Notes under the pieces: model-generated
The model's input: only the letters and a program-made list of their open reading frames with translations
Told to the model about the DNA's origin: nothing
Databases searched by the model: none
Made by a program: the position numbers and the translations under genes
Shown: positions 34,299 to 60,879 of the stretch, in pieces
Layout: every line of letters starts with the position of its first letter
Numbering within the stretch: the first letter of the stretch is position 1
Source of the DNA: a virus
DNA: 64,000 nucleotides
Direction: 5' to 3' (one strand)
IMG/VR virus record: IMGVR_UViG_3300032053_000003
Coordinates: 30,392-94,391 of that record

Positions 34299-35759
34299 AT
34301 GTCTAAGTTTATTCCAGTATCTGGACCTTTAACCACTACAAGCCCTACTATCGATTCTCTTGATAATGTGAGGGTTAATGGTGTTCCAGGATATTACCCT
34401 GCTCTACTTGAAGGTGATGCTATCTTCGTTATTACTCCTGATGAAAGAACTTTCACCTATCGGGTAGAAATTAGATCCCCCAAGCCACCTGAAGATGTTC
34501 CTAATGTAATTTACCCTAAGTATTCCTCTGGTAATACTCCATATACTGGCAATATTTGTTTTATTCTTGCTGGTACTTCGGGTGGTACAGGCTCTTCTGG
34601 AACGAGTGGTTCATCTGGAATGGGTACATCAGGTTCTTCGGGCACCTCATTTTCTGGAATTACATCAGGGACTAGTGGTAGCTCAGGGGAGGGTGCAGAT
34701 GGAACTTCTGGTACCTCTGGCAATGGGTCTTCAGGGACTTCTGGGTCTTCAGGATCAAGGGGATCTAGTGGCACTAGTGGATCGTCTGGTATTGGCTCTT
34801 CTGGTACTTCTGGCTCTTCTGGTCTTTCGGGAATAGATGGTTATGATGGTACATCTGGCACCAGTGGCTCAAAAGGTGATGTAGGGTCCAGTGGAACCAG
34901 TGGGTCTTCAGGTTCAAGTGGTTCAAGGGGCACCTCAGGCACTAGTGGTTTAAGCGGTTCCTCAGGCACCAGTGGTACAGGATCTTCGGGGACTAGTGGT
35001 ACAGGATCTTCGGGGACATCAGGATTAAGTGGTTCTTCAGGGACTTCAAGTGTTGGCTCCTCTGGTACATCAGGTAATAGTGGGTCTTCTGGCACCAGTG
35101 GTTCAAGAGGCACTAGTGGGTCTTCAGGAACATCTGGATTAGGGTCTTCAGGAACCAGTGGCTTTGGTACTTCTGGTACGTCAGGCTTTGGAACTTCAGG
35201 TACATCAGGGTCTGGGACTTCAGGAACCTCTGGATCAGGTACCAGTGGAACCTCTGGAGTCAATGGTACTTCTGGGACAAGTAGTACTGGCTCTTCAGGA
35301 ACTAGTGGTTTAAGTGGGTCAAGTGGAACATCTGGTTTTGGTTCATCTGGTACATCAGGTCTCTCACCTCTTAATTATTATAATATTGACTCCACTACTG
35401 GTTATGAAACTCAGGTTTGCGCCACAGGTTCAGGGGTTACAATAAGTAAAGTAGGAAGTCTTTACACTTGGAGTATACCTTCAGGGGTACGTCTCATTTC
35501 TTGTAGCATAAGAGTTCCTGGAAGTTCACTCACTAGTGGTCAGATAATAATGGACTACTCTACTTTGGGGACTATGACCTGGACTAACAGGTTACTGGTA
35601 GGACCCATAAAGGCTTGGAGAGAGGACTCTGGTGCTCAGGTTACTATAACAGTCCAAGATCCAGATATTGAGCTGAATAGATGGTACCTTAGTGGAATGA
35701 GTGTCACTACTACATCATATGATTTGCTCATTTATTTCCATCAGAGAGTAACCTCATAA
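34299..35759 (+). CDS. Ser/Thr-rich Gly-X-Y (collagen-like) repeat fibre protein with C-terminal globular domain
   Basis: about 270 residues of GSS/GTS triplets (GTSGSSGTSGS...) then a non-repetitive C-terminal domain; AGGAGA SD. Confidence 0.7.
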   Translation: MSKFIPVSGPLTTTSPTIDSLDNVRVNGVPGYYPALLEGDAIFVITPDERTFTYRVEIRSPKPPEDVPNVIYPKYSSGNTPYTGNICFILAGTSGGTGSSGTSGSSGMGTSGSSGTSFSGITSGTSGSSGEGADGTSGTSGNGSSGTSGSSGSRGSSGTSGSSGIGSSGTSGSSGLSGIDGYDGTSGTSGSKGDVGSSGTSGSSGSSGSRGTSGTSGLSGSSGTSGTGSSGTSGTGSSGTSGLSGSSGTSSVGSSGTSGNSGSSGTSGSRGTSGSSGTSGLGSSGTSGFGTSGTSGFGTSGTSGSGTSGTSGSGTSGTSGVNGTSGTSSTGSSGTSGLSGSSGTSGFGSSGTSGLSPLNYYNIDSTTGYETQVCATGSGVTISKVGSLYTWSIPSGVRLISCSIRVPGSSLTSGQIIMDYSTLGTMTWTNRLLVGPIKAWREDSGAQVTITVQDPDIELNRWYLSGMSVTTTSYDLLIYFHQRVTS

Positions 35760-38700: not shown

Positions 38701-40511
38701 TTGATGGGTCTTCAGGAACCAGTGGTATTGGTCTTGATGGGTCTTCAGGTACGAGTGGTATTGGTCTTGATGGGTCTTCAGGTACGAGTGGTATTGGTCT
38801 TGATGGGTCTTCAGGTACGAGTGGTATTGGTCTTGATGGGTCTTCAGGTACGAGTGGTATTGGTCTTGATGGGTCTTCAGGAACCAGTGGAGCTGATGGA
38901 GCCGATGGGTCTTCAGGAACCAGTGGAGCTGATGGGTCTTCAGGAACCAGTGGATTTGGAACTTCTGGTACGTCAGGAATTTCAGGCTCCAGTGGCACCT
39001 CAGCTACTTCTGGAGGAGGGGCAGGGGATGGTACTATTCTTCTTGGAGAACTTCCTTCAGGACAGATCTATGATGGTTTGATAACCCTTACGGAGACTGA
39101 TCAGGTGAATGAATCTATCAATTGGATTAATGAGATGCTTATTCTGATCTCCCCTGCAAAGCCTGAGATGCTCACAGGGGATGCTCTTGTTCTTACTGGT
39201 ACTGCTAAATATAGTGCTAAGGTGCCTTCTGGTCTTGTTGCAGCTTGGTATCTTGGTGGTGTGTCAGCTGGGGATACCATCACTGATTACGTTACAGACA
39301 ATACATTCCGTCTGACAACACCATCAACTTCAACAGAGTTTTATAACGGGATGTATACAGCTCCTGGTGGGACTTTGAATCTGTATGCAGGTGCCTCTAT
39401 TATCGATACCATCTCTACTGCAACAGCTGGCTCTTCTACGATGTTGACAGTATCTGATGTTGCAACTTACAACTCTATCTGGAGCAAAGCTAATGCTTAT
39501 GCAGATATCACTCAGACTGCTGAGGGCTATCTGTATTACAATTTTAATCACTCACTTGCTGGTGTAACAAACAATCTTGTAGTCAGGTATGATGATGTTC
39601 ATTCCACTCCTTCATTCTCATCAGCTCTTTCCATTGCTGAGAATACACCAGTCTGGAAGTATTTGTCAGGCATTCAGTATTATGGTCAGGGAACTACTCT
39701 AAATATTTCTTATACAGCTGCTGCTGGTATATTTACAAAATGTTATCATCCAACAGCAGTGGCAGTTATTTCCCAGAATGCTGTTGCCTTTGCAACCTTC
39801 AACTACAATCCTGCATCAATACCTGCTTATAACGATAACTGGATAGTGACTGGTTACACAGTGACATTGAGTGTGGCAAATAAGTCTTCTAATTCACCTA
39901 CTATTTCAGTAACCTTACAGAAGCCCACAGGTACCCAGGTTGTCTCTACTGCAAGCCTTGCTAAGAAACTTTGTACTTATGGTAACTATTCCACAACAAC
40001 TATAGAGTATTTCTTTGATGAGGCTTACAGGCTTGAGATAGGTACTGACACTGCTTGGACTTCATCAGCTACTTTGATAGATGACAATGCTCAGGTTCGT
40101 AATGGCTTTTTGCAGTGGCCTGATTCAGGGGATTACCCTACTGGGTTCTCAGGTGATCAGGAGTACCAGAGAAAGTTTACAAAAGTATCAGCATCCACTG
40201 GTACTTTAACCTTCTCAGGTATTACTTATTCTCAGATTTCTGCTTACGGTACTGGGGACCTCAATATTCTCCTTTATCTTGATACTGATGCCATATGGTT
40301 TGATCTTGGTCAGCTTGTTGGTTTTGGTGGGAATGGTTCTACACGAGCTTTGGCTATAGGTGCTCAGGGTTCAGGTTCAGGTGGACTTGTTAATTGGTCA
40401 ATAGGTACTTACAGTACAGGACCTTCTGGTTCAGGAAACTTCGGTAAATATAGGCTTGTCATTATCTTTAGGAACACCAACAGAACAATTACCCAGATAG
40501 TGTCTGCATAA
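35772..40511 (+). CDS. giant fibre/tailspike protein (1579 aa): collagen-like GXY blocks + right-handed beta-helix (pectate-lyase-fold-like) domain + C-terminal domains
   Basis: Multiple GSSGTSG[AI]DG blocks. The segment KPFKTLQAAFDYIGQPT...YNVYVAPGIYTETLTIPARPSINVFVDGVKIVGNV matches the N-terminal cap of pectin-lyase-fold depolymerases. Confidence 0.7.
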   Translation: MSLAFAARLVINNVVDLGSNIYEITGRVYDFSISGYLASDVQLGDVIIDENSETGVVNRWKITNIVLASIRNLVCHVVWDDEGIEDPAGPQICPAAICSTSINVKLAEVPTSTYSLLSETILTRINNINNRVFIDPAITAGTSGSSGTSGEGGGTSGSGSSSGTSGISGADGSSGTSGIGLDGSSGTSGADGSSGTSGADGSSGTSGADGVDGSSGTSGIGLDGTSGTSGDWRNGVYNEIISADSDDCYVTPNDSAIDIGPSLVAMGKGEFSLGAGFRWNGLNIPQGSLITTAYVSLTSADDISNEDCIIQIKGEASDNAITFSTYEDYAARSLTAASVAFIFPPSTGDVVYTTPELKTIIQEIVNRSSWQVGNSIVLFFDDNGSTAYAQRNVCDFGANPTKAAKLYLQWDSSNGPQGLPGVDGTSGSSGSSGTSGADGADGSSGTSGIDGADGSSGTSGIGLDGSSGTSGVDGADGSSGTSGFGSSGTSGIGLDGSSGTSGADGSSGTSGIGLDGSSGTSGADGSSGTSGADGSSGTSGADGSSGTSGSSGTSGVDAQATNSVYVDRARGDTYTPTGSVTKPFKTLQAAFDYIGQPTLPADFNDAAKFGYNVYVAPGIYTETLTIPARPSINVFVDGVKIVGNVTWNFDGTTLTGALTHPELAFIGDNFRNAYNTDGHPLTCTIVGNLTITQIAGSSGSGARGPILMLRGAGVVGNITYNTSGTATGYKSFTQMRDSIYTGTLSTVGAGVSNLLYISNCDTSSSYAVGAISGNVSLYVLRNVRLVGTVVSTSNNGGRWFNVTFGAVAHDFTNCSGTFSCDANSYSSFYANVTNKGAGVFTLIDEAKGVKNDSNVTGVSVKDALNNLLALVGTSGTSGTSGSRGVDGSSGTSGAGLPGTSGTSGADGSSGTSGADGADGSSGTSGIDGADGSSGTSGIGLDGSSGTSGVDGADGADGSSGTSGIGLDGSSGTSGIGLDGSSGTSGIGLDGSSGTSGIGLDGSSGTSGIGLDGSSGTSGIGLDGSSGTSGIGLDGSSGTSGADGADGSSGTSGADGSSGTSGFGTSGTSGISGSSGTSATSGGGAGDGTILLGELPSGQIYDGLITLTETDQVNESINWINEMLILISPAKPEMLTGDALVLTGTAKYSAKVPSGLVAAWYLGGVSAGDTITDYVTDNTFRLTTPSTSTEFYNGMYTAPGGTLNLYAGASIIDTISTATAGSSTMLTVSDVATYNSIWSKANAYADITQTAEGYLYYNFNHSLAGVTNNLVVRYDDVHSTPSFSSALSIAENTPVWKYLSGIQYYGQGTTLNISYTAAAGIFTKCYHPTAVAVISQNAVAFATFNYNPASIPAYNDNWIVTGYTVTLSVANKSSNSPTISVTLQKPTGTQVVSTASLAKKLCTYGNYSTTTIEYFFDEAYRLEIGTDTAWTSSATLIDDNAQVRNGFLQWPDSGDYPTGFSGDQEYQRKFTKVSASTGTLTFSGITYSQISAYGTGDLNILLYLDTDAIWFDLGQLVGFGGNGSTRALAIGAQGSGSGGLVNWSIGTYSTGPSGSGNFGKYRLVIIFRNTNRTITQIVSA
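38658..38888 (+). repeat. perfect 33-bp x 7 coding tandem repeat (GIGLDGSSGTS G units)
   Basis: GGTATTGGTCTTGATGGGTCTTCAGG(A/T)AC(C/G)AGT repeated 7 times head to tail. Confidence 0.9.
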
Positions 40512-40512
40512 T

Positions 40513-40845
40513 ATGAGTAAGGCATACCAACTTCTTTTTGAAATATTGAACCCTCACTACCATCTTCGTTTACGAGAGGGGATAGAGGTTAGGAAGGTTC
40601 TTAAATCTACTGATAATGGTAGTTGGGTAGAGAAGGAAGAGATCTGGGGTCTTAATGGTAATACAGATGATGACACCCCAATGATTACTGCATACACTCC
40701 TTCTGGTGATTATCTCGGTGATCCTGATTTTGCTAAAATGTTAGTTAAGAAAGGGATCACTCAGTTTGAGAATACTGAGCCAGATCACTGTGTTTGCTCC
40801 ATAGGTTTTAATCCTGAGAAAAGAATGGAGTGGGTGGAGTCATAG
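40513..40845 (+). CDS. MSKA-tag family protein (MSKAYQLLFEILNP...)
   Basis: 110-aa ORF starting 1 nt after the fibre stop. Confidence 0.5.
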   Translation: MSKAYQLLFEILNPHYHLRLREGIEVRKVLKSTDNGSWVEKEEIWGLNGNTDDDTPMITAYTPSGDYLGDPDFAKMLVKKGITQFENTEPDHCVCSIGFNPEKRMEWVES

Positions 40846-41720: not shown

Positions 41721-44700
41721 ATGTGGACTAAGGAAGATCGAAGCTTCAAGACCCTGATTAATCGTAGGACAACTGATTCTACAGGTAAATATTGGTATAA
41801 TGAAGTTTCTGATTCTACGTTAAATGTCCATATCAGTGAGATATGGTCTGACACTATCAATGAATCTCCTGCCCAGGCAGTTATTGATGGTGTTGCAGAG
41901 TTAAGAACTCTTTTCACCTTAACTGAAGATACCACAGTACCTCTTCAGTACTGTTACTACGCATACTCTGGTGATAGGCTTAAAGACTGGATTTCTACAA
42001 AATATGGTAGTGGGTACACTGTTCACCTTTTTGACAATAACAATGTAGAGATAGGTCCTACAAATGCTTGTCAGTGGTTTTTTGACAATCAAACTGGAAT
42101 TTTAACCTTCAATGCTTCTGTTGCTGCTTTTGCCAAGCCTTTTAAGATTACTGGTTATAGGTACATAGGAGCCAAAGGTGTGGGCACCTCAGGTGCTGGC
42201 ACATCTGGTACATCGGGTATCAATGGGTCAAGTGGTACATCTGGTATAGGTTTTTCTGGCACCTCAGGTACATCTGGTGTGGGCACTTCTGGAACTTCAA
42301 GTATTGGTGTCGATGGCTCTTCAGGTACATCAGGTCTTAGTGGCTCAAGTGGTACTTCGGGACCAGGGGGGTCAAGTGGAACCTCAGGTTTCAGTGGTAC
42401 AGCAGGACAGGGATTCAGTTGGGAGAGTCAGTGGACAGCAAGTAAAGTTTACCAAGCTTATGATGTTGTAAAGACTGATTACAATTCTTACGTTTGTCAC
42501 TTGGGTCATACATCAACTTATAATGATCAACCTGGTGTAGGTCCTAATTGGGGTAATTACTGGGATACTTTTACTGAGGGTGGAATAGGATCTTCAGGTA
42601 CATCTGGATCAGGATCTTCAGGAACCAGTGGTTCTGGCTCCAGTGGCTCAAGTGGGTCTTCGGGCACAAGTGGCTCTTCAGGCTCTTCAGGAACCTCAGG
42701 TTCAAGTGGATCTTCAGGGACTGGTTTTTACTGGGATGACATGTGGCAGTATGATCATGCCTATGGAGTAAATGCTGTAGTTGAAAGTCTTAAAAGTTGC
42801 TACATTTGTAAGATATCTCATATCTCAACTTATGAAGATGAGCCAGGTGTTGATGCCTCTGGTCATGACTGGGAAACCTATTGGGATCTTATGGTTCCTG
42901 GTGGTGTTGGGTCTTCAGGTACGAGTGGGTCCAGTGGTTCAAGTGGTTCAAATGGTTCTTCAGGATCAAGTGGGACTTCAGGCTCTAGTGGTAAAGGTTT
43001 CATATGGGGAGGGGAATGGTCTACTTATCGTACTTTTTATACTTATAATGTAGTATCTCATTTGCATCATGGTACTTTTGTTTGTATTCAAGATCATATA
43101 TCTGATCCTATGTATCATGCTTATGAGCCTATGGGTAACGAAGATTGGCAGTCTTACTGGCAACCTTTTGCATTAAGTGGTACATCAGGTTCATCGGGTG
43201 CTAATGGGTCTTCAGGAACCTCAGGCTCAAGTGGAAAAGGATTCACATGGACAGGTGCTTGGATCATAAGTCATGTATATGATGAGACTCAAATGGTGGA
43301 GAATGGTTCAGACAGTTATGTCTGTACTGTATCCCATACTTCAGATGCCCTCAATGAACCTGGTAATGAACTTACAGGTAATGATTGGGAAGATTACTGG
43401 GATCGTTTCCTTCCTGGTGGGAATCCTGGATCTTCTGGCTCTAGTGGCTCAAGTGGTACAAGTGGCTCCAGTGGGTCATCAGGAACCTCAGGCTCCAGTG
43501 GTACAGGTGGATTTAAGTGGGCAGGTGGTTGGTATGAATATCCAAGTCATCTTTATCAGGTTCATGATGTAGTATCTCATAATCCGTGGGGAACTTTCGT
43601 ATGTATTCAGCAGCATCTTTCTGAATATAATCATGAGCCAGAGGTAGATGGTGACTGGCAGTCATACTGGCAGTATTTTGCTCCTGCTGGCACATCGGGT
43701 TCATCAGGTGTTAATGGGTCTTCAGGTACAAGTGGAGTTTCACCTGCATTTACTAGTATTCTCAGTCAGGATCTTGATGCCAATGAATGGAGTATTGTCC
43801 ATCTTAATTCTGTATCATGGAATTCAGAGTACAACTATGGTGATGCTGGAACTTCAGCTACTATTAATTGGACAGAAGGTCAGATCCAGAAGGTAATTCT
43901 TACTAAGCCTAGTATCATAAATTTTAGTAATCCTGTAGGTGTTGGGTATTATCTGATCAGGTTGGTTACTGGTGGCTATAATGCAGTATTTCCAAGTGTG
44001 ATTTGGGCAGGTGGTTTAACTCCTACTTTTGGTGCTGAGGCTGTAAACCTAGTTTACATTTATTTTAATGGTGTTACCTATTATGGTCATGTTTGGGGTC
44101 AGGGAGGCACTTCAGGCACGAGTGGGTCTTGTACGTTTACCAGTACTCTTGAGACTGATCTTGATGCAAATAATCACAATATTATTCATCTTAACTCAGT
44201 TTGTTATAATGCAGAGTATAATTATGGGGACTCAGGCTCGATAGCTACTATAGATTGGACAGAAGGTCAGTTACAGAAGATAGATCTCACTGATGATTGT
44301 GAGATTTCTCTCTCTAATCCTAAGGGTGTTGGATATTATCTGATCAGGTTGGTTACAGGACTTGGTTCAGGTTATGGTTACAATGCAACATTCCCTGATG
44401 TAGTTTGGACGGGTCCTACTCCTGTTTTTGGTGATGATCTTGAGAATGTAATCTATTTTTACTTCAACGGTATTAATTATTATGGTCATGTTTGGGGTAC
44501 AGGTGGGACTGGTGGAACCAGTGGTTCTGGCACCAGTGGGACTTCAGGTGTATCTGGGTCTTCAGGGACTAGTGGGGAGGCTGGAACCTCTGGAGTAGCT
44601 GGCACCAGTGGGACTTCTGGTTCCAATGGTTCTTCAGGGACTTCAGGCTTGATTTCAACTTATCAGTACTCAAATACATATTCTGCTTCTACATCCTGGG

Positions 44701-44870
44701 AAGTTGCTCATAATCTTGCAGCTGATCTTGTGATGGTACAGTGTTTCAGTGATGACTCTCCTAAGAAAGTAATAATGCCCTATGATATTACATTGGATAC
44801 TACCAATCAGTGTACTGTTAATTGGGGTGATTCATCTGTTGCTGGTAGTGTTTGTGTTTTGAAGTTTTAG
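41721..44870 (+). CDS. fibre protein with six CBM5/12-like (chitin-binding type 3-like) carbohydrate-binding repeats separated by GSSGTSG linkers, and duplicated C-terminal domains
   Basis: Six copies of W...Y.aYDVV......YVC...HTS....PG....W..YW (e.g. QWTASKVYQAYDVVKTDYNSYVCHLGHTSTYNDQPGVGPNWGNYWDTF). Two approximately 120-aa C-terminal repeats (DLDANEWSIVHLNSV... / DLDANNHNIIHLNSV...). Confidence 0.7.
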   Translation: MWTKEDRSFKTLINRRTTDSTGKYWYNEVSDSTLNVHISEIWSDTINESPAQAVIDGVAELRTLFTLTEDTTVPLQYCYYAYSGDRLKDWISTKYGSGYTVHLFDNNNVEIGPTNACQWFFDNQTGILTFNASVAAFAKPFKITGYRYIGAKGVGTSGAGTSGTSGINGSSGTSGIGFSGTSGTSGVGTSGTSSIGVDGSSGTSGLSGSSGTSGPGGSSGTSGFSGTAGQGFSWESQWTASKVYQAYDVVKTDYNSYVCHLGHTSTYNDQPGVGPNWGNYWDTFTEGGIGSSGTSGSGSSGTSGSGSSGSSGSSGTSGSSGSSGTSGSSGSSGTGFYWDDMWQYDHAYGVNAVVESLKSCYICKISHISTYEDEPGVDASGHDWETYWDLMVPGGVGSSGTSGSSGSSGSNGSSGSSGTSGSSGKGFIWGGEWSTYRTFYTYNVVSHLHHGTFVCIQDHISDPMYHAYEPMGNEDWQSYWQPFALSGTSGSSGANGSSGTSGSSGKGFTWTGAWIISHVYDETQMVENGSDSYVCTVSHTSDALNEPGNELTGNDWEDYWDRFLPGGNPGSSGSSGSSGTSGSSGSSGTSGSSGTGGFKWAGGWYEYPSHLYQVHDVVSHNPWGTFVCIQQHLSEYNHEPEVDGDWQSYWQYFAPAGTSGSSGVNGSSGTSGVSPAFTSILSQDLDANEWSIVHLNSVSWNSEYNYGDAGTSATINWTEGQIQKVILTKPSIINFSNPVGVGYYLIRLVTGGYNAVFPSVIWAGGLTPTFGAEAVNLVYIYFNGVTYYGHVWGQGGTSGTSGSCTFTSTLETDLDANNHNIIHLNSVCYNAEYNYGDSGSIATIDWTEGQLQKIDLTDDCEISLSNPKGVGYYLIRLVTGLGSGYGYNATFPDVVWTGPTPVFGDDLENVIYFYFNGINYYGHVWGTGGTGGTSGSGTSGTSGVSGSSGTSGEAGTSGVAGTSGTSGSNGSSGTSGLISTYQYSNTYSASTSWEVAHNLAADLVMVQCFSDDSPKKVIMPYDITLDTTNQCTVNWGDSSVAGSVCVLKF

Positions 44871-44955: not shown

Positions 44956-46413
44956 ATGAGGTACTATGGTGTGGAGATGAAGGGTATCCTTCTAATCCAA
45001 AAGGTAGCTGAAAAGCCAGTGTGGGGAACTTCAGATGAGGGTCGTTTCATATATGATCTGGATACCAAGAAGACCTACTATGGTGATAATACCGATTGGA
45101 AAGAGTGGGGTACTTCGGGTACCTCTGGCTCCAGTGGGTCTTCAGGTACTTCTGGCTCAAGTGGTACCTCTGGCTCCAGTGGGTCTGATGGCTCCAGTGG
45201 TACAAGTGGCTCTAGTGGGTCTTCAGGAACCAGTGGCTCCAGTGGGTCTGATGGCTCATCGGGTACCAGTGGCTCTAGTGGATCTTCAGGTACAAGTGGC
45301 TCAAGTGGGTCTTCAGGTACCAGTGGCTCCAGTGGGTCTGATGGCTCATCGGGTACCAGTGGCTCTAGTGGGTCTTCAGGTACAAGTGGCTCAAGTGGGT
45401 CTTCAGGTACCAGTGGCTCCAGTGGGTCTGATGGCTCATCGGGTACCAGTGGCTCTAGTGGGTCTTCAGGTACAAGTGGCTCAAGTGGGTCTGATGGCTC
45501 ATCGGGTACCAGTGGGTCTTCAGGTACAAGTGGCTCTAGTGGTTCTTCAGGAACCAGTGGGTCTTCAGGTACAAGTGGCTCCAGTGGGTCTTCAGGTACA
45601 AGTGGCTCCAGTGGGTCTTCAGGTACAAGTGGCTCCAGTGGGTCTGATGGCTCATCGGGTACCAGTGGCTCCAGTGGTTCATCGGGTACAAGTGGTTCTA
45701 GTGGGTCTTCAGGTACGAGTGGGTCTGATGGCTCCAGTGGTACAAGTGGCTCAAGTGGGTCTTCAGGAACCAGTGGCTCAAGTGGGTCTGATGGCTCCAG
45801 TGGTACTTCTGGCTCAAGTGGGTCTGATGGCTCAAGTGGTACTTCTGGCTCAAGTGGGTCTTCAGGTACCAGTGGTTCTTCAGGCTCCAGTGGTACAAGT
45901 GGCTCCAGTGGGTCTGATGGTTCTTCAGGTACCAGTGGCTCCAGTGGTACAAGTGGCTCTAGTGGGTCTTCAGGAACCAGTGGCTCCAGTGGGTCTGATG
46001 GCTCATCGGGTACCAGTGGCTCTAGTGGGTCTTCAGGTACAAGTGGCTCAAGTGGGTCTTCAGGAACCAGTGGCTCCAGTGGGTCTGATGGCTCATCGGG
46101 TACCAGTGGCTCTAGTGGGTCTTCAGGTACAAGTGGCTCAAGTGGGTCTAGTGGGTCTTCAGGAACCAGTGGCTCCAGTGGTACTTCTCCTATTGAGACC
46201 TATTCCAATACTTATGCTGCTTCCACTTCATGGACAGTAGAACATGCTCTTAACAGTAGTACTCTTCTGGTGCAGTGTTGGGATGCCTCAACTTCAGGGG
46301 TACAGATGATCATTCCTAACTCAATTGTAATCGATACTGTTAACCAGATCATTGTTAACTGGGGTGATTCGGTGGTGGATGGAAGAGTTTGTGTTATTAA
46401 GCTTCTTCCGTAG
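44956..46413 (+). CDS. collagen-like GXY repeat fibre with conserved N-terminal anchor domain (MRYYGVEMKGILL...)
   Basis: about 360 uninterrupted residues of GSSGTSGSSGSDG; N-terminus paralogous to those of 46503 and 51553 genes; C-terminus similar to that of 41721 gene (NWGDSVVDGRVCVIK vs NWGDSSVAGSVCVLK). Confidence 0.7.
   Translation: MRYYGVEMKGILLIQKVAEKPVWGTSDEGRFIYDLDTKKTYYGDNTDWKEWGTSGTSGSSGSSGTSGSSGTSGSSGSDGSSGTSGSSGSSGTSGSSGSDGSSGTSGSSGSSGTSGSSGSSGTSGSSGSDGSSGTSGSSGSSGTSGSSGSSGTSGSSGSDGSSGTSGSSGSSGTSGSSGSDGSSGTSGSSGTSGSSGSSGTSGSSGTSGSSGSSGTSGSSGSSGTSGSSGSDGSSGTSGSSGSSGTSGSSGSSGTSGSDGSSGTSGSSGSSGTSGSSGSDGSSGTSGSSGSDGSSGTSGSSGSSGTSGSSGSSGTSGSSGSDGSSGTSGSSGTSGSSGSSGTSGSSGSDGSSGTSGSSGSSGTSGSSGSSGTSGSSGSDGSSGTSGSSGSSGTSGSSGSSGSSGTSGSSGTSPIETYSNTYAASTSWTVEHALNSSTLLVQCWDASTSGVQMIIPNSIVIDTVNQIIVNWGDSVVDGRVCVIKLLP
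45115..46190 (+). repeat. about 1.1-kb low-complexity coding tandem array (9/18/90-bp periodicities, GSSGTSGSSGSDG)
   Basis: e.g. 90-bp units at 45241-45330, 45331-45420, 45421-45510 are near-identical. Confidence 0.85.
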
Positions 46414-46434
46414 GTAGTCAACATTTGAAGTACA

Positions 46435-46482
46435 GTGGTGGAGTCTTCGGACTCCACCACATATTCGTCTTTATTCATTCTT
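46435..46482 (+). terminator. rho-independent terminator
   Basis: 11-bp perfect stem GTGGTGGAGTC-TTCG-GACTCCACCAC followed by T-rich tract ATATTCGTCTTTATTCATTCTT. Confidence 0.6.
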
Positions 46483-46502
46483 AAACTTCAGAGGAGTACA
46501 TA

Positions 46503-49500
46503 ATGAAGCATTATGGTATTGACTCTCAATATCTGCTTACAGCTGAAAGTTCTCAGTCTTTGCCTACCTGGGATACCAAATACAAGAGGTCTTTCATCTA
46601 TTCTGAAGGAGATAGTAGAATGTATTATGGTACGAATACTGGGTGGGCTGCATGGGGAACCTCAGGAACCAGTGGTATTAAAGGAGAAGTAGGAACTTCA
46701 GGCACCAGTGGGTTAGCTGGGTCCAGTGGGACTTCAGGGTCAAAAGGAGAAGTAGGAACCTCAGGCACCAGTGGGTTAGCAGGATCTTCAGGTACTTCTC
46801 CTACAAGTGTTGGAGCATGGGCTACTACAACTGCTCTCAATGCCAGCAGGACTCAGTTTGGTGGGTGTGGTTCAATAGCTTCTGCTCTTGCTTTTGGAGG
46901 TCACACAGGTGGTGGTGCAGCCTTAAATACTACTGAAATCTGGACAGGATCTTCCTGGATGACAGCTTCAGCTACTCTGACTCAAAGTAAAACTTATTTG
47001 TTAGGTATAGGTGATTCTTCTTCAGCCTTGTGTGTGGGTGGTAGTACTTCAGTTACTGAAAAGTGGTCTGGTACAGGCTGGTCAACCACAGGTAGCTTCC
47101 CTATGGTTATTCATGGTCTTTCTGGTGGTGGTTCAACAACTGCAGCTATTGCCTTTGGTGGTTATACAAGCAATTATTCAAACCAGACAAGTACCTGGAA
47201 TGGTGTAGCTTGGTCTGCTGCTAATACTCTAAATCAGGTAAGAGGCTATGGTTCTGGTTGTGGTAATACAACAACTGCCTTGGCAATTGGTGGATTCTCA
47301 GGAGCAAATCTTAATACTGTTGAGAAGTGGGGTAACTCTTCTTGGAGTACCACTACAGCTATACCTACGGCTACCTGGGGTGCAGGTGCTGCTGGGGGTG
47401 CTAGTTTAGCCATTATCTTTGGTGGAAATACAGGTTCAGGTGCTGCTGCTTGCATTAGTTCTTCTTATGCATGGAATGGATCAGCATGGTCTATTACAAC
47501 TTCTTTGAATGCTGTAGTGGTTAATAATGGTGGAGTTGGTGATAAATCCAATGCCCTTTCTTTTGGTGGGGACACTCAGGGAAGTGTGGCAAGAATAGGT
47601 ACTGAGAAATGGGTGGATGGTACCTCAATTACCTCAGGATCATCTGGCTCCAGTGGGACTTCTAGCTCCAGTGGTACTTCAGGGAGTAGTGGATCTTCTG
47701 GTAGTGGTTCTTCAGGTACCAGTGGCTCAAGTGGCTTAAGTGGTTCTTCGGGGACTAGTGGCTCCAGTGGTTCTTCAGGAACCAGTGGCTCAAAAGGTGA
47801 TGCAGGTTCTAGTGGAACCAGTGGGTCTAGTGGAACCAGTGGCTCTACTGGTGCTGATGGTGCTTTTTCAGGCTTAATTTTATATTTTGATCATGTGGAT
47901 TCTGATCTTACCTTGCCTTCAATTACATTAAGTACATTGGCTTTTGTAAATTCTAATCCTGATACATTAGTCCGTTCTGATGTTGGTAGTTTTATAACTG
48001 ATGGGTATATACCAGGACAAAAACTTAAAATAACAGGTGGGGTTAATGATGGATTGGAATTTCCAATTTTATCAGTAGTTGCTAAAACGATTACTTTTAT
48101 TTATTCGGCTGCAGTGACTGCCCAGGCAGAAGGTATATCTATAACTTTGTCAGTTCAAAGAGAGACTCTTACAAGGGTACCCGTATCAGGAACACAGGTG
48201 ATTGAAAGTGTTGAAGTAAAGAGTACATCTCCAGAAGATGTTGTGGGTGCAACATTAGATTCTTATGCAACTGTGCTGACCGTACCGGGATCAACACGAG
48301 TTCCTTCTGGTGTTTGGACCTTCAGATTTTGGGCATATGCAAGTAATTTGGGATCTGAATCTTATATACATTTTGTTATTGCTAAAAAATCAACGTCTGG
48401 AATTGTTACTGATCTATTTAGCACAATTGAGGGTAAATCAGTAATGGTGTCTCTTGCAGGGGATTCAAACGATCAAAAGAGGTATATTCAGACACATGTA
48501 GAGCCTACAGAGTATTCACTGGCAACCACAGATAGGATAATAGTAAGGGTTGTTGCTACTGCAAAAACTACGACAAGAACTGTATCGTTTATCTATCAAG
48601 GTACAGCAATGGCATCATTTATTGAGACACCGTTTAGTGTATCAGCTCCATCTGGAACATCAGGTACCAGTGGTTCTTCAGGCTCCAGTGGTTCTTCAGG
48701 CTCCAGTGGTACTTCTGGCTCAAGTGGTACCTCTGGCTCCAGTGGGTCTGATGGCTCCAGTGGTACAAGTGGCTCTAGTGGGTCTTCAGGAACCAGTGGG
48801 TCTTCAGGAACCAGTGGCTCCAGTGGGTCTGATGGCTCATCAGGTACAAGTGGCTCAAGTGGGTCTTCAGGAACCAGTGGGTCTTCAGGAACCAGTGGGT
48901 CTTCAGGAACCAGTGGCTCCAGTGGTTCTGGTACTGATGTTACTAAAACTTTCTCTCAAGCTGTTAATACTACTTATATTGCAAGTGTTAGTACAGGTAT
49001 AGTTGTAACAGATAATGATAATATTGATTTTGGAACTGGAGATTTTACTTTAGTCTGGAGAGGGAGTTTACCTGATTGGACTCCAAGTATTTATGGGCAG
49101 ATTATACGACATTATGACAGTAATTTGGGTGTTGGATGGGTATTTAGTACTGATACTGGAAGTACTGGTAAGTTAAGACTTAGAAGAAGTACTAATGTTG
49201 CAACTTCTACAGTCTTTTCTAATATTGTTGATGGATCAGTAGCAGAAGTAGCTGTTGTGGTAGATTCTACTAATGCTACCTTTTATGTTAACGGAGTACA
49301 ATTAGGAAATGCTGTTGCTTGTGGAGCAGTAGATGTTTCTAATACTGGGATACTTGAAATACTTGGAGATCAGAATGGTGCACAACATGCAGGAATCTGT
49401 TTATTTGCTGCTACTTACAATCGTGCTTTAACATCTACAGAAGTATTAGATTTATATAAAAATGGTATCAATTATGCTGATAAATGGGGAAGTCAGACAG

Positions 49501-50879
49501 CACAGTTATCTGGTACTATGTCAGGAGGAGCGTATGATACAATAGACGAGACGACAACTACAGGGTTTCATGCAGTTAATTTAACTTCACACGGAGGATA
49601 TGCAGGAACTACTGATGCGATGTCTGTTGTTGCGGGGAAGAGGTATCGAATATCTTATATAATAGCTCTATCCAGTGGAACATTACCCCAATCTGTTCAA
49701 TTCAGTGAGTCCTTGGGAGGAGGAAGCGTTATTGGTTTTACTAATGTCCCCGTAAATGGTGTTAATTCCACTGAATTTACAGCCTTGTTAACAGGCACTG
49801 GGGTGTTTTGGTGGTATAATAATTCTGGGGCTGTGGACTATACTGTGTCTAATTTTCTCTTTGTCGAAGTTGGGGCAACTCTTGCCCTCGAATCAGAAGG
49901 AATTCATACTGATAAATGGTATGATTCTTCAATAAATGCTTTAGATGCAACTTATCCAACAACAGGAAGTAGCCTAGTCAGGAATCCTTTTTTACCTATG
50001 ATTGTGGGAGGAGATAAAACAACATCTGATCTTACATTAAAAACTACTATTGGAGTAGGTACAACTGGTGCAGATATGCACTTTTTAGTGGGTAATAATG
50101 GTGCAACTGAGGCTATGACTATTTTAAATAATGGTAATATTGGTATGTTTACAACTGATATTGAAGCCTGGTCTGCTAGTTATTGGGCTATTCAATTTCC
50201 AGTTGGGGCATTACAGATAGCCAAAACAAGTCCTGTTATAGGTGTTACAGATAATTCATATTATACTGCCACTGGGTATAAACGTAGAATAGAAGCAGCA
50301 GCAGCACAATATATAATAAATAGTGGAACACATAGCTTTCGAGTAGTAGCATCAAATACTATTGATAGTGTAATAACTTGGATATCTGCAATGAGGGTTG
50401 ATAATACAGGCAACGTAGGCATTGGGAATTTTGAATTGGGAATAGAACCTGCAACTAAGCTTGATGTAGCAGGTTCAATGCAGGTTTCATCTGCTGTGGC
50501 TCTCAGTTTAGGTGGTTATGTAAGAACATTTGCAGAGGCTACAGGCACTCCTTCTGGTTCAACTACATATTTTGATATAGCTGTTAACGTACCCACTGGA
50601 TGTAAATTATTAGGTTGTCAATTAAGAGTGGATGCTACTCTTGCAACTGGGGAAACCTGGGGAGCTGCCTATATTACTGGCTCTACAACTGTGATAGCAG
50701 CAGCAGGTCAGGCTGTTGCAGCAAATACTAAAGTAAATAAAATGCATCTTGATGAGATAACCTCAGCAACTACTAAAGTAAGGATTACCAGAGATTCAGG
50801 TAATTTTTCAAATGGATATGGGATTATACGAGCAATAGTTTATTATGAAACATTTACGGCAATGGGCAACGCCAATTGA
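46503..50879 (+). CDS. giant fibre protein (1458 aa): N-terminal anchor domain + Kelch-type beta-propeller + GXY linkers + LamG/concanavalin-like lectin domain + C-terminal domains
   Basis: Six repeats of about 50 aa with GG...W...W (ALAFGGHTGGGAALNTTEIWTGSSW...). LamG-like segment DFGTGDFTLVWRGSL...ATFYVNGVQLG...; two GSSGTSG blocks. Confidence 0.7.
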   Translation: MKHYGIDSQYLLTAESSQSLPTWDTKYKRSFIYSEGDSRMYYGTNTGWAAWGTSGTSGIKGEVGTSGTSGLAGSSGTSGSKGEVGTSGTSGLAGSSGTSPTSVGAWATTTALNASRTQFGGCGSIASALAFGGHTGGGAALNTTEIWTGSSWMTASATLTQSKTYLLGIGDSSSALCVGGSTSVTEKWSGTGWSTTGSFPMVIHGLSGGGSTTAAIAFGGYTSNYSNQTSTWNGVAWSAANTLNQVRGYGSGCGNTTTALAIGGFSGANLNTVEKWGNSSWSTTTAIPTATWGAGAAGGASLAIIFGGNTGSGAAACISSSYAWNGSAWSITTSLNAVVVNNGGVGDKSNALSFGGDTQGSVARIGTEKWVDGTSITSGSSGSSGTSSSSGTSGSSGSSGSGSSGTSGSSGLSGSSGTSGSSGSSGTSGSKGDAGSSGTSGSSGTSGSTGADGAFSGLILYFDHVDSDLTLPSITLSTLAFVNSNPDTLVRSDVGSFITDGYIPGQKLKITGGVNDGLEFPILSVVAKTITFIYSAAVTAQAEGISITLSVQRETLTRVPVSGTQVIESVEVKSTSPEDVVGATLDSYATVLTVPGSTRVPSGVWTFRFWAYASNLGSESYIHFVIAKKSTSGIVTDLFSTIEGKSVMVSLAGDSNDQKRYIQTHVEPTEYSLATTDRIIVRVVATAKTTTRTVSFIYQGTAMASFIETPFSVSAPSGTSGTSGSSGSSGSSGSSGTSGSSGTSGSSGSDGSSGTSGSSGSSGTSGSSGTSGSSGSDGSSGTSGSSGSSGTSGSSGTSGSSGTSGSSGSGTDVTKTFSQAVNTTYIASVSTGIVVTDNDNIDFGTGDFTLVWRGSLPDWTPSIYGQIIRHYDSNLGVGWVFSTDTGSTGKLRLRRSTNVATSTVFSNIVDGSVAEVAVVVDSTNATFYVNGVQLGNAVACGAVDVSNTGILEILGDQNGAQHAGICLFAATYNRALTSTEVLDLYKNGINYADKWGSQTAQLSGTMSGGAYDTIDETTTTGFHAVNLTSHGGYAGTTDAMSVVAGKRYRISYIIALSSGTLPQSVQFSESLGGGSVIGFTNVPVNGVNSTEFTALLTGTGVFWWYNNSGAVDYTVSNFLFVEVGATLALESEGIHTDKWYDSSINALDATYPTTGSSLVRNPFLPMIVGGDKTTSDLTLKTTIGVGTTGADMHFLVGNNGATEAMTILNNGNIGMFTTDIEAWSASYWAIQFPVGALQIAKTSPVIGVTDNSYYTATGYKRRIEAAAAQYIINSGTHSFRVVASNTIDSVITWISAMRVDNTGNVGIGNFELGIEPATKLDVAGSMQVSSAVALSLGGYVRTFAEATGTPSGSTTYFDIAVNVPTGCKLLGCQLRVDATLATGETWGAAYITGSTTVIAAAGQAVAANTKVNKMHLDEITSATTKVRITRDSGNFSNGYGIIRAIVYYETFTAMGNAN

Positions 50880-50911
50880 TCTGAATGTAATCTGTAATTT
50901 CTGAGGTATCT

Positions 50912-51535
50912 ATGAACCTTTTTGCACCCAAACCCAAAAGTTTGATTCTTGATCCTTATTCTGGGACACCAGTGGAACTTCAAAATTTCCACATTGAGCC
51001 TTGTGACCTCTTTTTTACCCATGGTGATAAACTTTTTAGTAAGATTATTAGGCTTGGTGAAAAACATCTAGGTGATTGGATCTCTGTTATAAATCATACA
51101 GGGATAGTAGTTGAGCAAGGAACCATAGGGTCTGCTGATGTGATTGAAGCATTGGCTACAGTAAAGAAGCATACTTTATGGGAACAGTATCATGGTCAAT
51201 CAGATCAGGTAGCCGTATTTAGGCCCCTTGGCCTTACTGATGAGCAAAAGAAAATCATTGTTGATAAGGCTATTGATTATGAGGGTAGAACATATGGGTA
51301 TGCAAAGATAGCCACTAATGCTTTAGATTTCTTTACTGGTGGTCATTATATCTTCAGAAGACTAACAAATAGTGATCAGTATCCTATTTGTAGTTGGGTA
51401 GTAGCCCACTCATATTCCAAGGTGGGTCTGACATTCGGTTGTGATCCAGGACAGGCAAATCCAGATGATATATGGGATTACTGCTTGGGTCATCCAGATA
51501 AATATCAACTTATTTTCAGCCTACAAAAAGTATAA
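50912..51535 (+). CDS. putative cell-wall hydrolase, permuted NlpC/P60 (YiiX/DUF830-like) papain-fold peptidase
   Basis: H..G (NHTGIVV) precedes the Cys motif (YPICSWVV), the order typical of permuted NlpC/P60; lies between fibre genes like a tail-associated lysin. Confidence 0.45.
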   Translation: MNLFAPKPKSLILDPYSGTPVELQNFHIEPCDLFFTHGDKLFSKIIRLGEKHLGDWISVINHTGIVVEQGTIGSADVIEALATVKKHTLWEQYHGQSDQVAVFRPLGLTDEQKKIIVDKAIDYEGRTYGYAKIATNALDFFTGGHYIFRRLTNSDQYPICSWVVAHSYSKVGLTFGCDPGQANPDDIWDYCLGHPDKYQLIFSLQKV

Positions 51536-51552
51536 ACAGGAGGTAAGACCAA

Positions 51553-52382
51553 TGAGGCATTATGGTATTGATGATCAATATTTACTGCAAGCGGAGACAT
51601 GTGACCCTCTTCCTTCTTGGGAAGCAAAGTACACCAGGAGCTTCATTTATGACCTTGATACTAAGACAATGTACTATGCTACGGATACAAAGTGGGTAGC
51701 TGTCAGTGCTAACGTACTTGCTGGCTATATTCATCCTCAGGCATCAGCATCAGCAACTTGGAGTGTTGTTCATGATCTGGGTGTCCAGGATGTAAGTGTC
51801 ACCGTCTATGGTGAGGACAACAAGGTCATGATGCCTATCGACATTGAGACAATCAGTGTCAATGCTCTCACAATTACCTTTGGTGAGGCTGTGGCAGGTA
51901 AGGCTGTCATCGTTACAGGTAACCCTGGCACAGTGACCTACAGTCAGCAGAAGGTTACACTTGCCAAAGGGACCTCTCTTGCTGATGGTGATTGGAAGGG
52001 TCTGGCTATTACAGGTGCAGTAGGTGGTTCAATAACCAAGGGAGACCTCTGCTACTGCAAACTTAATTTGGGTGCTTGGAAGTACTATCGTTATGATGCT
52101 GATGCTACTGATAAGCTAATTCTCCCCTCAGCCTTAGCTCTTGATTCTTACATATCAGGGGATGGTAGCTTCTTAATCGATGGTGAGATGAGGAATGATG
52201 CTTGGACAGGGCTTGCTGGGACTGCTGATGCATCAACTACAGTCTATGCAAGTACGGCTACAGGTAACCTTACCATGACTGCCCCAGCTGTCTCAGGTAA
52301 CGAAGTTGTTGTTGTAGGTGTACTCATTGCTGCTTACACCCTTCAGCTAAAGATCGGGTATGCTTGGCTTGAGGTGAAGTAA
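51553..52382 (+). CDS. short fibre protein with conserved N-terminal anchor domain (MRHYGIDDQYLLQAETCDPLPSWEAKYTRSFIY...)
   Basis: GGAGG SD before ATG 51553; N-terminus paralogous to 44956 and 46503 genes. ORF-track start 51441 would overlap the upstream gene. Confidence 0.6.
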
Positions 52383-52406
52383 CCAACAGCTCTAACCTCC
52401 TGGTAT

Positions 52407-52440
52407 AGAGGGAGTCTGTCTTTGGGCTCCCTCTTTGTAC
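52407..52440 (+). terminator. candidate terminator hairpin
   Basis: AGAGGGAGTC-TGTCTTTG-GGCTCCCTCT 10-bp stem (one G-U) followed by TTTG. Confidence 0.4.
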
Positions 52441-52546
52441 CTAAACTTAGAGGTTGAAAAACTTGATATCATTGCTTTAGGGTATTAACATTATGGGGCA
52501 AGAGTGTAGAGAAGAGTGTGATATTCCTATAGATAAGGGGGGTAGT

Positions 52547-54211
52547 ATGCCTGTAATCAGCAAATATGGATCAGATGAGCCTCAGAAGATCCAGGAGTTC
52601 CTAGAAGTATCTAAGCCTTTTGATGTGTCAGAAGTAATTCAAGGGACCTCTCTTTTAAAGTTGGAGGATATAGATTTTCTTAATGAGCATGCTAGTCAAT
52701 TTGAGCAAAGATTTAATGCTAGATCTATATTTAGGTCAAAATTTGAAATGGAAGCTTCTGTTCTTAATGATGATGTTCATCCTACTCCTGATAGCAAATA
52801 TTTCCAGGCAATTGGGGAGCAGAATGTCCACCTTACAGAGTTGATATCTCTTATTTATAATGTAAAAAAAGGTGGTAAGGATATCGAACTGAAAGGGATA
52901 GATCTTGATGAGGTCAACCTTCAGCTCAAACGTCTGCATAGAGAGAATGTTGAGCTGTGTGAGAGGATATCAAAACCTGATGCCGTAGCTTCCAGAGAGG
53001 ATGCTGACAGGTTAGATGAATTGCCTATTCTTATTAATAGGAAAGAAAAAGAGATCGAAAAACTTGAGTTGGAACTTGATGAGCTGAAGTTCAATATCAA
53101 GCAGTCCAATAAGGTAGCTCAGGAGCGTATCCGTGAGGTTAAACAGTGGGAAGCTATTATTGCCAAGCTTGTTCCTCAACTTGAGTTTGGGATCGAAGAC
53201 TTTGAGCTGCATCACCCAAAACGATATGTTCAGAGATATGGTCGTAGGGCTATGCATCTCGATATTCTTAATCCTGAAGATAAGGAGAATGTAGTCAGTC
53301 ATTTCTTATCTTTTGCAGGTCATACAGATAACAAAGAGGAAGCCAAGAAGTTTCTTAAGGATATGGTGACTGTAGGTGGCATGCCAATGAATCATGGATT
53401 GGTTAAGGCTCTTCAGGCATCTATAGGACAACCCAACTTGCAACAGTTGTCAGCTCCTGATGTTAAGAGGCTAGATCAGGATTACCCCAGTAAGGAAATA
53501 GCTAACCTGGATGATCCTGTTGTGAAGAGCTTCTTTATCAGGAAGACTCTCAAGATCTTGGTGTGTTCTCCTCATCGTCTTCCTACAGATAAGATTATTA
53601 TGAATATGTGGGCACTCCAGACACCTGCTGCTTTTGATTGTCAGCTGTGGGAACCTCATGGGATGTCAGTTGCTGAGGCTCGTACCTCATCTATTAAGAA
53701 AGCTATTGCAGAAGGGTACCAGTTCATTCAGTGGATTGATGATGATATGATTCTACCCAGGAATGCCTTAGTGCAGCTTATCAGTCACGTTGCTGACATC
53801 GTAGGTGGTTTCTACTATCGTAAGTATGAGCCTATTGAGTCCTGTGGTATGCATGAGTATGTTATCAACAATGAGATGGTGCCAAGACCTATTAAGGATT
53901 TTAAGATAGGTGAGGTTATTCATCATACTTTGGTTCTTCCCTCTGGTTGTACTCTTCTTAATCTTGATATCTTTAAGAATGAGAAGATGGAGGAGCCTTG
54001 GTATAGGACTGTTACAATAACAGGTGCACCAGCAATTACAGAGGACACCTATTTTTGCCAAAAGGCACGGTTGGCTGGGTATGATGTGCTTACCGATACA
54101 GGTGTTCAATGTATCCATGTTGATCTGGCAAGTAATAGGATCTTCGGGCATCCTGAAGTAGTTGATATGAGTAAGAATATTATTCTTAATCCGTATAATT
54201 ATTGCTTATAA
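52547..54211 (+). CDS. coiled-coil + GT-A fold glycosyltransferase (GT2-like); alt start 52493
   Basis: GGGGGG SD before ATG 52547; C-terminal half has FIQWIDDDMILP (DxD) and GGFYYRKYE typical of GT-A; central ELELDELKFNIKQ coiled coil. Confidence 0.55.
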   Translation: MPVISKYGSDEPQKIQEFLEVSKPFDVSEVIQGTSLLKLEDIDFLNEHASQFEQRFNARSIFRSKFEMEASVLNDDVHPTPDSKYFQAIGEQNVHLTELISLIYNVKKGGKDIELKGIDLDEVNLQLKRLHRENVELCERISKPDAVASREDADRLDELPILINRKEKEIEKLELELDELKFNIKQSNKVAQERIREVKQWEAIIAKLVPQLEFGIEDFELHHPKRYVQRYGRRAMHLDILNPEDKENVVSHFLSFAGHTDNKEEAKKFLKDMVTVGGMPMNHGLVKALQASIGQPNLQQLSAPDVKRLDQDYPSKEIANLDDPVVKSFFIRKTLKILVCSPHRLPTDKIIMNMWALQTPAAFDCQLWEPHGMSVAEARTSSIKKAIAEGYQFIQWIDDDMILPRNALVQLISHVADIVGGFYYRKYEPIESCGMHEYVINNEMVPRPIKDFKIGEVIHHTLVLPSGCTLLNLDIFKNEKMEEPWYRTVTITGAPAITEDTYFCQKARLAGYDVLTDTGVQCIHVDLASNRIFGHPEVVDMSKNIILNPYNYCL

Positions 54212-54252
54212 GCAGTAGAGTAGTATCACATAAACACTACCAAATGTGAGGG

Positions 54253-58713: not shown

Positions 58714-58907
58714 TTAGTACAATTATTGCCAGGGAAACAGAGTTACTGGATAAAGTTCTGGAGAAAATGAGAGAAGGACAGTCACTATTTCCTATTACTC
58801 CCTTCAATATCAGGGAGGTTACAAAAAAGATGAGGGAAGCTAGTGAGGTATTGGGAGTTGGTATAGACCGATTGCATCAGGAGGCAGATTATGGCAGAGT
58901 TTTATAA
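58710..58907 (+). CDS. hypothetical protein
   Basis: 65-aa ORF, ATGA overlap. Confidence 0.4.
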   Translation: MISTIIARETELLDKVLEKMREGQSLFPITPFNIREVTKKMREASEVLGVGIDRLHQEADYGRVL

Positions 58908-59793: not shown

Positions 59794-59802
59794 GGAGGTT
59801 CC

Positions 59803-60561: not shown

Positions 60562-60573
60562 GGAGTATGGTCT

Positions 60574-60786: not shown

Positions 60787-60807
60787 AAATAAGGAAATCT
60801 CTTGTTG

Positions 60808-60832: not shown

Positions 60833-60879
60833 CTATTGTATTTTTAAAGATATAAGCCTATACTTTCTGAGGAGTTCTT

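Follow-up and report, generated by a model that had tools for sequence, protein, structure and literature searches.

Collagen-like Gly-X-Y repeats separate the domains of Streptococcus thermophilus phage antireceptors (DT1 ORF18/VR2; Duplessis and Moineau 2001), as cited in PMC5601072 and PMC7242381. These papers also carry the proposal that collagen repeats are recombination hot spots at which the variable domain of the antireceptor is exchanged, and a spontaneous deletion of the collagen-repeat region of phage Sfi21 is mentioned in PMC7242381. In those siphophages of ~35 kb the arrays are short, lie in one gene, and use typical collagen residues. The present work concerns a cluster of collagen-like fibre genes in a 64,000-nucleotide stretch of phage DNA (IMG/VR record IMGVR_UViG_3300032053_000003, positions 30,392 to 94,391; hereafter the window, from whose first nucleotide all coordinates are counted, with genes named by their first position). 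Here five collagen-bearing paralogues occur in a phage of ~237 kb, and one of them, g44956, contains 120 proline-free triplets based on Ser and Thr. The analysis indicates that the repeats are probably collagen-like (Gly-X-Y)n stalks of paralogous fibre proteins, that the array of g44956 has been amplified recently and varies in length, and that modules are exchanged at the collagen segments. Length variation and domain exchange at collagen repeats are an already known phenomenon, of which this locus adds a well-documented example.

Several other systems offer partial parallels. BclA, of the exosporium nap of Bacillus anthracis, has a strain-specific number of triplets in a Thr-rich, glycosylated collagen region (PMC10470788), and the number of repeats sets the length of the filament (PMC10470788 and Sylvestre 2003, cited therein). 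Like g44956, BclA consists of a short N-terminal domain, collagen, and a C-terminal domain; in BclA the first serves for anchoring and the last for trimerization. It differs in being a spore protein with Pro-containing repeats of the GPT type, there is no homology to g44956 outside Gly-X-Y, and glycosylation of the phage protein is suggested by neighbouring genes. Lcl, an adhesin of Legionella pneumophila, contains an in-frame Gly-X-Y variable-number tandem repeat (VNTR) whose repeat number varies from isolate to isolate, in correlation with the strength of binding (PMC6460258). Lcl is a bacterial adhesin with 11–18 units and a proven triple helix, whereas that of g44956 is presumed.

The virophage Guarani carries 27-nt collagen repeats in ORF8, and a mutant with an 81-nt in-frame deletion emerged on a new host virus, with expansion of host range (PMC7242381). 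This is the best experimental precedent for a change in repeat number associated with host range, although the agent is a eukaryotic virophage, has five repeats only, and encodes an ORF8 protein without an established function in the virion. EPclA of Escherichia coli O157:H7 prophages is a trimeric side-tail-fibre protein with a collagen triple helix, of which 111 residues extend ~30 nm by electron microscopy; the prophage collagen fibre was measured at 2.9 Å per residue (PMC3368898). It shares with the present locus a modular make-up suggestive of recombination, and differs in its PfN, PfC, and coiled-coil flanks and in its shorter, conventional collagen. Contingency loci, finally, have units of 1–8 nt that shift the reading frame or the spacing of a promoter and so produce reversible ON/OFF switching. 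They too are repetitive, slippage-prone DNA in genes for surface structures, but in the window the units are 9–90 nt long and always in frame, so that only length changes.

Results

Collagen-like triplets are confined to one gene cluster

Five adjacent plus-strand genes between 34299 and 50879 pass the Pfam Collagen model (PF01391), with scores of 44–180 bits against a cutoff of 27.2. A scan of the translations for Gly-X-Y runs of at least six triplets found 27 in the window, all inside this interval, and none in the rest of the 64 kb. The five genes also match PHROG families of tail fibre and collagen-like minor tail proteins; these matches sit in the collagen stretches. The non-collagen parts of the cluster have only Laminin_G_3 and weak CBM_5_12 matches.

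The array of g44956 is repetitive beyond the needs of its protein

Gene g44956 (44956–46413, plus strand; Pfam Collagen E = 7.3e-54) encodes 485 residues: an N-terminal domain of 51, a stretch of 120 Gly-X-Y triplets, and a C-terminal domain of 74. The triplets form an uninterrupted array of 1,080 nt (45109–46188, plus strand; residues 52–411) in which GSS occurs 69 times, GTS 39 times, and GSD 12 times. Position X is accordingly Ser (81) or Thr (39), and position Y is Ser (108) or Asp (12). The array contains no Pro and in this departs from the stabilizing residues of collagens (Pro or hydroxyproline, charged pairs, glycosylated Thr). A GSD triplet ends each of a series of blocks of irregular size (4, 7, 9, 10, or 17 triplets), a pattern that past register shifts would be expected to leave.

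An initial sequence-only reading had described about 1.1 kb of near-perfect tandem units, with short periods among them. The extent of the array is as described, but its perfection does not hold at short periods. Tandem Repeats Finder (TRF) reports periods of 27, 63, and 90 nt with 68–78% matches, and base identity within the array is 0.53 at an offset of 9, 0.70 at 27, and 0.73 at 90. Perfection is a property of particular blocks: exact matches measure 120 nt (45283 versus 45373), 99 nt (45961 versus 46051), and 93 nt (45189 versus 45936), and two identical 90-nt units, each DJCGKLIDHF in a code for the 9-mers, stand head to tail at 45961–46140 on the plus strand. The 120 triplets are written with only 18 distinct 9-mers.

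These blocks were compared with two null models in which either synonymous codons or whole 9-mers were permuted among positions encoding the same residues, with 60 permutations of each kind. Permutation of synonymous codons left no exact match longer than 38 nt inside the array or 33 nt from gene to gene, and permutation of whole 9-mers none longer than 66 and 65 nt, respectively; the actual sequence has matches of 120 and 92 nt. The repetition of the DNA thus exceeds what the protein sequence imposes.

A second array lies in g35772, where the sequence IGLDGSSGTSG is encoded seven times in succession (38658–38888, plus strand). It had been taken for a perfect 33-bp × 7 repeat. There are exactly seven units of 33 nt and the protein repeats are identical, but the DNA has two synonymous variants, GGAACCAGT (A) and GGTACGAGT (B), arranged in the order AABBBBA; an exact match of 128 nt is found at an offset of 33. 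Other exact matches within g35772 are of 98 nt (37104 versus 38535) and 68 nt (36315 versus 37341). With head-to-tail units of 27, 33, 63, and 90 nt and exact repeats of 99–128 nt at offsets of 33 and 90, the locus is best described as a coding VNTR in a fibre gene.

Two assemblies of the phage differ by one repeat unit

An independent assembly of the same phage (ENA ERZ27247916) is 100% identical to the window over ~21 kb on the upstream side (24299–45490). Over 16 kb on the downstream side (46189–62382) it differs at only three single-nucleotide polymorphisms (SNPs), at 51364, 51378, and 51379, which fall within 16 nt (99.98% identity). In the array, the 90-nt block DJCGKLIDHF that occurs twice in the window (45961–46140) is present once in the ENA contig, as seen both in an alignment of the 9-mer codes and in a comparison of the proteins. 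The missing unit is in frame and is bounded by a perfect repeat of 99 nt, a place at which slippage or unequal exchange would be expected. Over the rest of the array (~110 triplets) the two assemblies agree unit by unit, apart from one base in the first unit of the contig. Two close genomes therefore differ in copy number by one 90-nt unit, in a single comparison of short-read assemblies. An apparent 27-nt deletion at the start of the contig was not counted, since one A-to-T change in its first unit explains the alignment equally well.

All short-read contigs of the phage in ENA and Logan end inside collagen segments, at 36329, 38773/38867, 38906, 45174, 45387/45490, and 48897. The breaks at the 33-nt array illustrate the behaviour: one contig (L020) ends at 38867, another (L009) starts at 38773, and a third (L010) starts at 38906. 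Collapse of the array in the ENA assembly is nevertheless unlikely, although the argument falls short of proof, because a single 141-mer of the k141 assembly is long enough to span the single-copy junction (108 nt, made up of left flank, 90 nt, and right flank), and because the ENA strain has real SNPs elsewhere. The SNP trio lies in a gene at 50912–51535 with a weak Peptidase_C92 match, where five other contigs agree with the window.

Sequence is shared between g44956 and g46503

The third collagen segment of g46503 (48654–48932, plus strand; 31 triplets) is homologous to the g44956 array at the DNA level. It holds a block of 92 nt (48708–48799) that is identical to 45145–45236 of g44956, both on the plus strand, against a null maximum of 65 nt. 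The ~80-nt identity announced between these genes is thus real and longer than was claimed, but the positions first given for it, 48721–48800 and 45151–45230, match at 19 of 80 bases, the register being off by 7. The 9-mer vocabulary of g44956 covers 28 of the 30 9-mers in the third segment of g46503 and 10 of 12 in the second; for most other segments with the same triplets the coverage is 14–62%. In all, 39 exact matches of 24 nt or more link the two genes. By comparison, their N-terminal domains (51 residues) share 33% identity in protein and 58% in DNA (85/146). A 92-nt identity and 39 exact matches, found in genes whose N-domain DNA is only 58% identical, indicate that gene conversion or ectopic recombination has probably taken place between g44956 and g46503 after the paralogues diverged.

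A related phage has an orthologous array and re-assorted modules

A locus of a related phage of ~247 kb (L012; JGI contig Ga0501914_00005) contains an orthologue of g44956 with 65% protein identity in the N-terminal domain, 73% in the C-terminal domain, and the same GSS/GTS/GSD composition. Its array (7461–8270) has 90 triplets, compared with 120 in the window. Together with the unit missing from ERZ27247916, this difference bears out the expectation of length change at the array. The 90 units of L012 comprise 61 distinct 9-mers, and the longest internal exact repeat is 34 nt, against 18 9-mers in 120 units and a repeat of 120 nt in the window. Since L012 has the same type of protein without repetition in its DNA, the repetition is not a need of the protein, and the array of the window reflects recent amplification or homogenization, in keeping with the view that its perfect repeats are recent. 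The source annotation of L012 places a 281-residue minus-strand gene (7430–8275) over the array, and the real plus-strand gene (7308–8495) is overlooked.

Three proteins of L012 join domains that lie in separate genes of the window. One of 889 residues carries the N-terminal domain of g35772 (residues 1–131; 57% identity), collagen, and the body of g41721 (residues 232–1049; 55–67%). The gene preceding it carries the N-terminal domain of g41721 (74%), collagen, and the C-terminal 490 residues of g35772 (66%). A protein of 341 residues leads from the N-terminal domain of g41721 (80%) via collagen to the C-terminal domain of g34299 (40%). N-terminal domains and distal bodies have evidently been re-assorted between the two phages, with junctions in collagen. 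The shuffling of modules that had been predicted from the window is realized in the exchange of the g35772 and g41721 N-terminal domains onto each other's distal parts.

The P0124 lineage (L013–L018) was considered for a second comparison of repeat number and was rejected, its fibre gene being a collagen-free, Kelch-like protein. The six contigs of this lineage encode an identical 278-residue homologue of g51552. In the Kelch-like fibre gene upstream of it (651–660 residues) the first ~100 residues are identical and are followed by two diverged types, which is strain-level mosaicism without collagen.

Other genes of the cluster

The product of g34299 (34299–35759, plus strand; 486 residues; Pfam Collagen E = 2.3e-12) has many short, interrupted Gly-X-Y runs and a distinct C-terminal domain. 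That of g35772 (35772–40511, plus strand; 1579 residues; E = 2.7e-30) has three collagen regions (36192–36434, 37014–37442, and 38385–38960) between globular parts. In g41721 (41721–44870, plus strand; 1049 residues) an N-terminal domain is followed by five Trp-rich modules of ~60 residues between collagen segments, by further globular parts flanked by collagen, and by a C-terminal beta domain that is 53% identical in protein to that of g44956. The Trp-rich modules (G-F-x-W ... Y-W; 42414–43690) are spaced by collagen in a beads-on-string layout, and two of the five match CBM_5_12 weakly (E 0.002–0.006, below cutoff).

The product of g46503 (46503–50879, plus strand; 1458 residues) comprises an N-terminal domain, a first collagen segment (46656–46799), Kelch-like "FGG" repeats, a second collagen segment (47706–47867), a middle domain, the third collagen segment, a lectin-like Laminin_G_3 domain (32 bits against a cutoff of 27.6), and a C-terminal part. 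This C-terminal part, the lectin-like head, has 378 homologous proteins at E ≤ 1e-5. Collagen is present in 3 of the 120 homologues listed; the heads therefore travel among many types of stalk.

A further paralogue, g51552 (51552–52382, plus strand; 276 residues), is without collagen: its N-terminal domain is joined directly to the shared beta domain and is followed by a C-terminal fold resembling the capsid-decoration protein gpD. The N-terminal domain of g44956 is common to g46503 and g51552, and its C-terminal domain is common to g41721 and g51552. One orthologue of g51552 has a Gly-X-Y insert of ~63 residues at the domain boundary, which is absent in 12 other full-length orthologues.

Four open reading frames (ORFs) that overlap the fibre genes in alternative frames or on the opposite strand (45035–46240, plus; 38255–38998, minus; 38392–39081, plus; 48550–49002, plus) were rejected as genes, as they are without family support and are by-products of stop-free repeats. 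An ORF of 110 residues between two fibre genes (40513–40845, plus strand) matches Tad6 (PF25188, Type I Thoeris inhibitor; E = 1.8e-12, with 48 bits where the cutoff is 27). Two other assemblies contain an identical gene to which precomputed annotation likewise assigns this family, and the ORF is without a PHROG match. It is a candidate anti-defence gene within the fibre cluster.

Genome context

The genome is ~237 kb in size, and the genes around the fibre cluster belong to a large phage. Contigs of 230,776 and 6,718 nt in ERZ27247916 appear to tile it, as judged from two overlapping junctions, and a contig of 237,444 nt is on record; the presence of this phage in other assemblies emerged from exact-protein look-ups. 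Stretches of an uncultured phage of 735 kb resemble the repeat DNA, with 64% similarity. A PARP-like protein of 398 residues, assigned to a PHROG "polymerase" family, has its nearest match (37.6% identity) in an uncultured phage of 462 kb. The minus-strand region that contains it, together with an adjoining gene of 207 residues (precomputed S-AdoMet lyase family match) and a sigma-70 region-4 protein, occupies 28484–30353 and 30406–31194. Also on the minus strand are two transposase-like genes, a Mom-like DNA-modification gene, an RtcB tRNA-splicing ligase (E = 1.9e-113), and tRNA-Glu(ttc) (171–1262, 3138–4073, 10300–11391, 14926–16230, and 17466–17540).

Downstream of the cluster lie glycosyltransferases, an FkbM methyltransferase, and a Gp80 fibre protein. 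The gene at 54253–58713 (plus strand) encodes 1,486 residues with GT1/GT4 and GT9 glycosyltransferase parts and with Hint/intein-splicing and LAGLIDADG matches at approximately residues 268–648, most of these domain matches being below curated cutoffs. Homologous glycosyltransferases in the related phages L013, L014, and L019 are shorter (1,099–1,109 residues), and for this reason the extra ~380 residues look like an intein with a homing endonuclease.

Discussion

The locus would encode at least six paralogous, presumably trimeric fibre proteins, each with a short N-terminal domain, in most cases one or more collagen spacers, and globular distal domains. The collagen segments would act as rigid spacers, and the distal domains would include lectin-like, Kelch-like, and small beta domains. 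It is likely that the stalk of g44956 was built up or homogenized recently by duplication of units of 27, 63, and 90 nt, with exact repeats of 90–130 nt as the outcome. Exact repeats of this length readily undergo replication slippage and homologous recombination. Slippage, or unequal or ectopic homologous recombination, would then lead to gain or loss of stalk length in frame, the units of g44956 all being multiples of 9 nt. Recombination between collagen segments of different fibre genes would convert sequence, as in the block shared with g46503, and over longer times could re-assort N-terminal domains with distal bodies. At 2.9 Å per residue the whole array is predicted to extend ~104 nm, and one 90-nt unit ~8.7 nm.

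Several points weigh against this interpretation. A single copy-number difference has been seen, between two short-read metagenome assemblies, and assembly error is not fully excluded, as contigs break inside the arrays. The orthologue in L012 shows that DNA repetition is not preserved in the long term, and high variability may be a transient state. Pro is absent from the array and charged residues are scarce (12 Asp in 360 residues), so that it is uncertain whether a triple helix would be stable unless glycosylation or other stabilizers contribute. Nor was a further near-identical genome found in searches of phage records, IMG/VR, metagenomes, and proteins. Megablast against 50,697 phage records gave no near-identical genome, and tblastn with the g46503 head gave no match. 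The IMG/VR search yielded only a partial relative, 53% identical (L001), and exact DNA patterns taken from the two arrays matched nothing in that database; one metagenome scan returned a relative at 30% identity (L002). Exact-protein look-ups for g44956 and g35772 found no match in protein collections, in keeping with the breaks of every assembly found inside these genes, and a search with the full-length g44956 protein revealed no close variant among low-complexity collagen matches.

The simplest alternative is that the repeats are static, imposed by the Gly-X-Y requirement and fixed in number, and that short-read assembly is to blame for both the 90-nt difference and the contig breaks. In its favour, every short-read contig of the phage terminates inside a collagen segment, and the deleted unit is flanked by perfect repeats, the setting most prone to collapse. 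However, the exact DNA blocks exceed nulls that preserve protein and codons, and the L012 orthologue is a protein of the same type without DNA repetition. The two assemblies agree unit for unit over the other ~110 triplets, the ENA strain carries real SNPs at 51364, 51378, and 51379, and the single-copy junction of 108 nt, which fits one 141-mer, should be present in the reads if de Bruijn assemblers work as they are understood to. The orthologues differ by 120 versus 90 triplets as well, and a static array is an unlikely explanation of the whole. Still less probable is a true contingency locus, in which hypermutable repeats are kept by selection to switch the expression or specificity of fibres, as in the phase variation by simple sequence repeats of Haemophilus or Neisseria. 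The sequence-only reading had drawn this likeness, and long exact tandem repeats in surface-exposed, adhesin-like genes, with one unit-sized indel between near-identical genomes, are what such a locus would display. The likeness fails in two respects. The units (9, 27, 33, 63, and 90 nt, those of g44956 being multiples of 9 nt) keep the frame and afford no ON/OFF switch, and TRF found no array in these genes whose period was under 9 nt. Moreover, the purity of the repeats is not conserved in the L012 orthologue, whose array lost DNA repetition or never had it, which speaks against sustained selection for mutability.

Two further alternatives leave the dynamics of the DNA largely aside and concern the nature of the stalk and its place on the virion. 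The Ser/Thr/Gly arrays could be flexible, mucin-like linkers, heavily O-glycosylated, rather than triple helices, with the same behaviour of the DNA. The 360-residue array is without Pro, with Ser or Thr at X and only Ser or Asp at Y, and the region immediately downstream (52493–59793) encodes glycosyltransferases and an FkbM-type methyltransferase. Known bacterial and phage collagens are also without hydroxyproline, however, and a disordered linker needs no Gly at every third position over 120 unbroken triplets; the Pfam Collagen score is 180 bits. Purely mucin-like linkers are therefore improbable, and since collagen helix and glycosylation occur together in BclA (PMC10470788), both readings could hold at once. 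Doubtful, yet the most credible of the alternatives, is the possibility that the proteins are capsid (head) fibres or decoration-linked filaments, so that variation in length would tune a capsid "nap" instead of the reach of a receptor-binding tip. The labels "tail fibre" and "receptor-binding head" under which the genes were first read were assumed: the PHROG tail-fibre matches fall in the collagen stretches, and the paralogue without collagen carries a capsid-decoration fold. On the other hand, the structure model is of moderate quality (mean pLDDT, the predicted local distance difference test, of 71), Foldseek gave no significant match for it, and none of the collagen-bearing genes has the decoration-like domain. 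Laminin_G_3, the CBM-like modules, and the nearby Gp80 fibre gene fit tail adhesins equally well.

The preferred interpretation, collagen-like stalks of variable length in a cluster of exchangeable fibre modules, is compatible with modification of the stalk, and O-glycosylation of the array is plausible given the glycosyltransferase genes directly downstream. It is conceivable, though improbable as a whole, that the proline-free Ser/Thr collagens of g44956 and its paralogues are O-glycosylated by these enzymes, one of them with the apparent intein, and coat the capsid or tail of a jumbo phage with a hair-like nap whose filament length varies in natural populations as units are gained and lost. 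Such a nap would be the phage counterpart of the BclA nap or of the fibrils of Mimivirus. If this were true, it would represent a type of collagen helix stabilized by glycosylation and a tunable adhesion layer as yet undescribed for phages.

Phage fibres are commonly built with collagen-like stalks, which have received little study. The locus displays change on three time-scales: the gain or loss of a unit, the difference between 120 and 90 triplets in orthologues, and the re-assortment of modules at collagen junctions. It also provides an internal control, in that the same type of protein occurs with and without repetition of its DNA, and the repetitive state is thus recent and not required by the protein. 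Every short-read assembly of the phage breaks at the arrays, and such fibre genes are therefore systematically fragmented or mis-called in metagenomes. If the length of the fibre or the combination of heads affects adsorption, a link not shown here, loci of this kind would be a cheap source of variation in host range.

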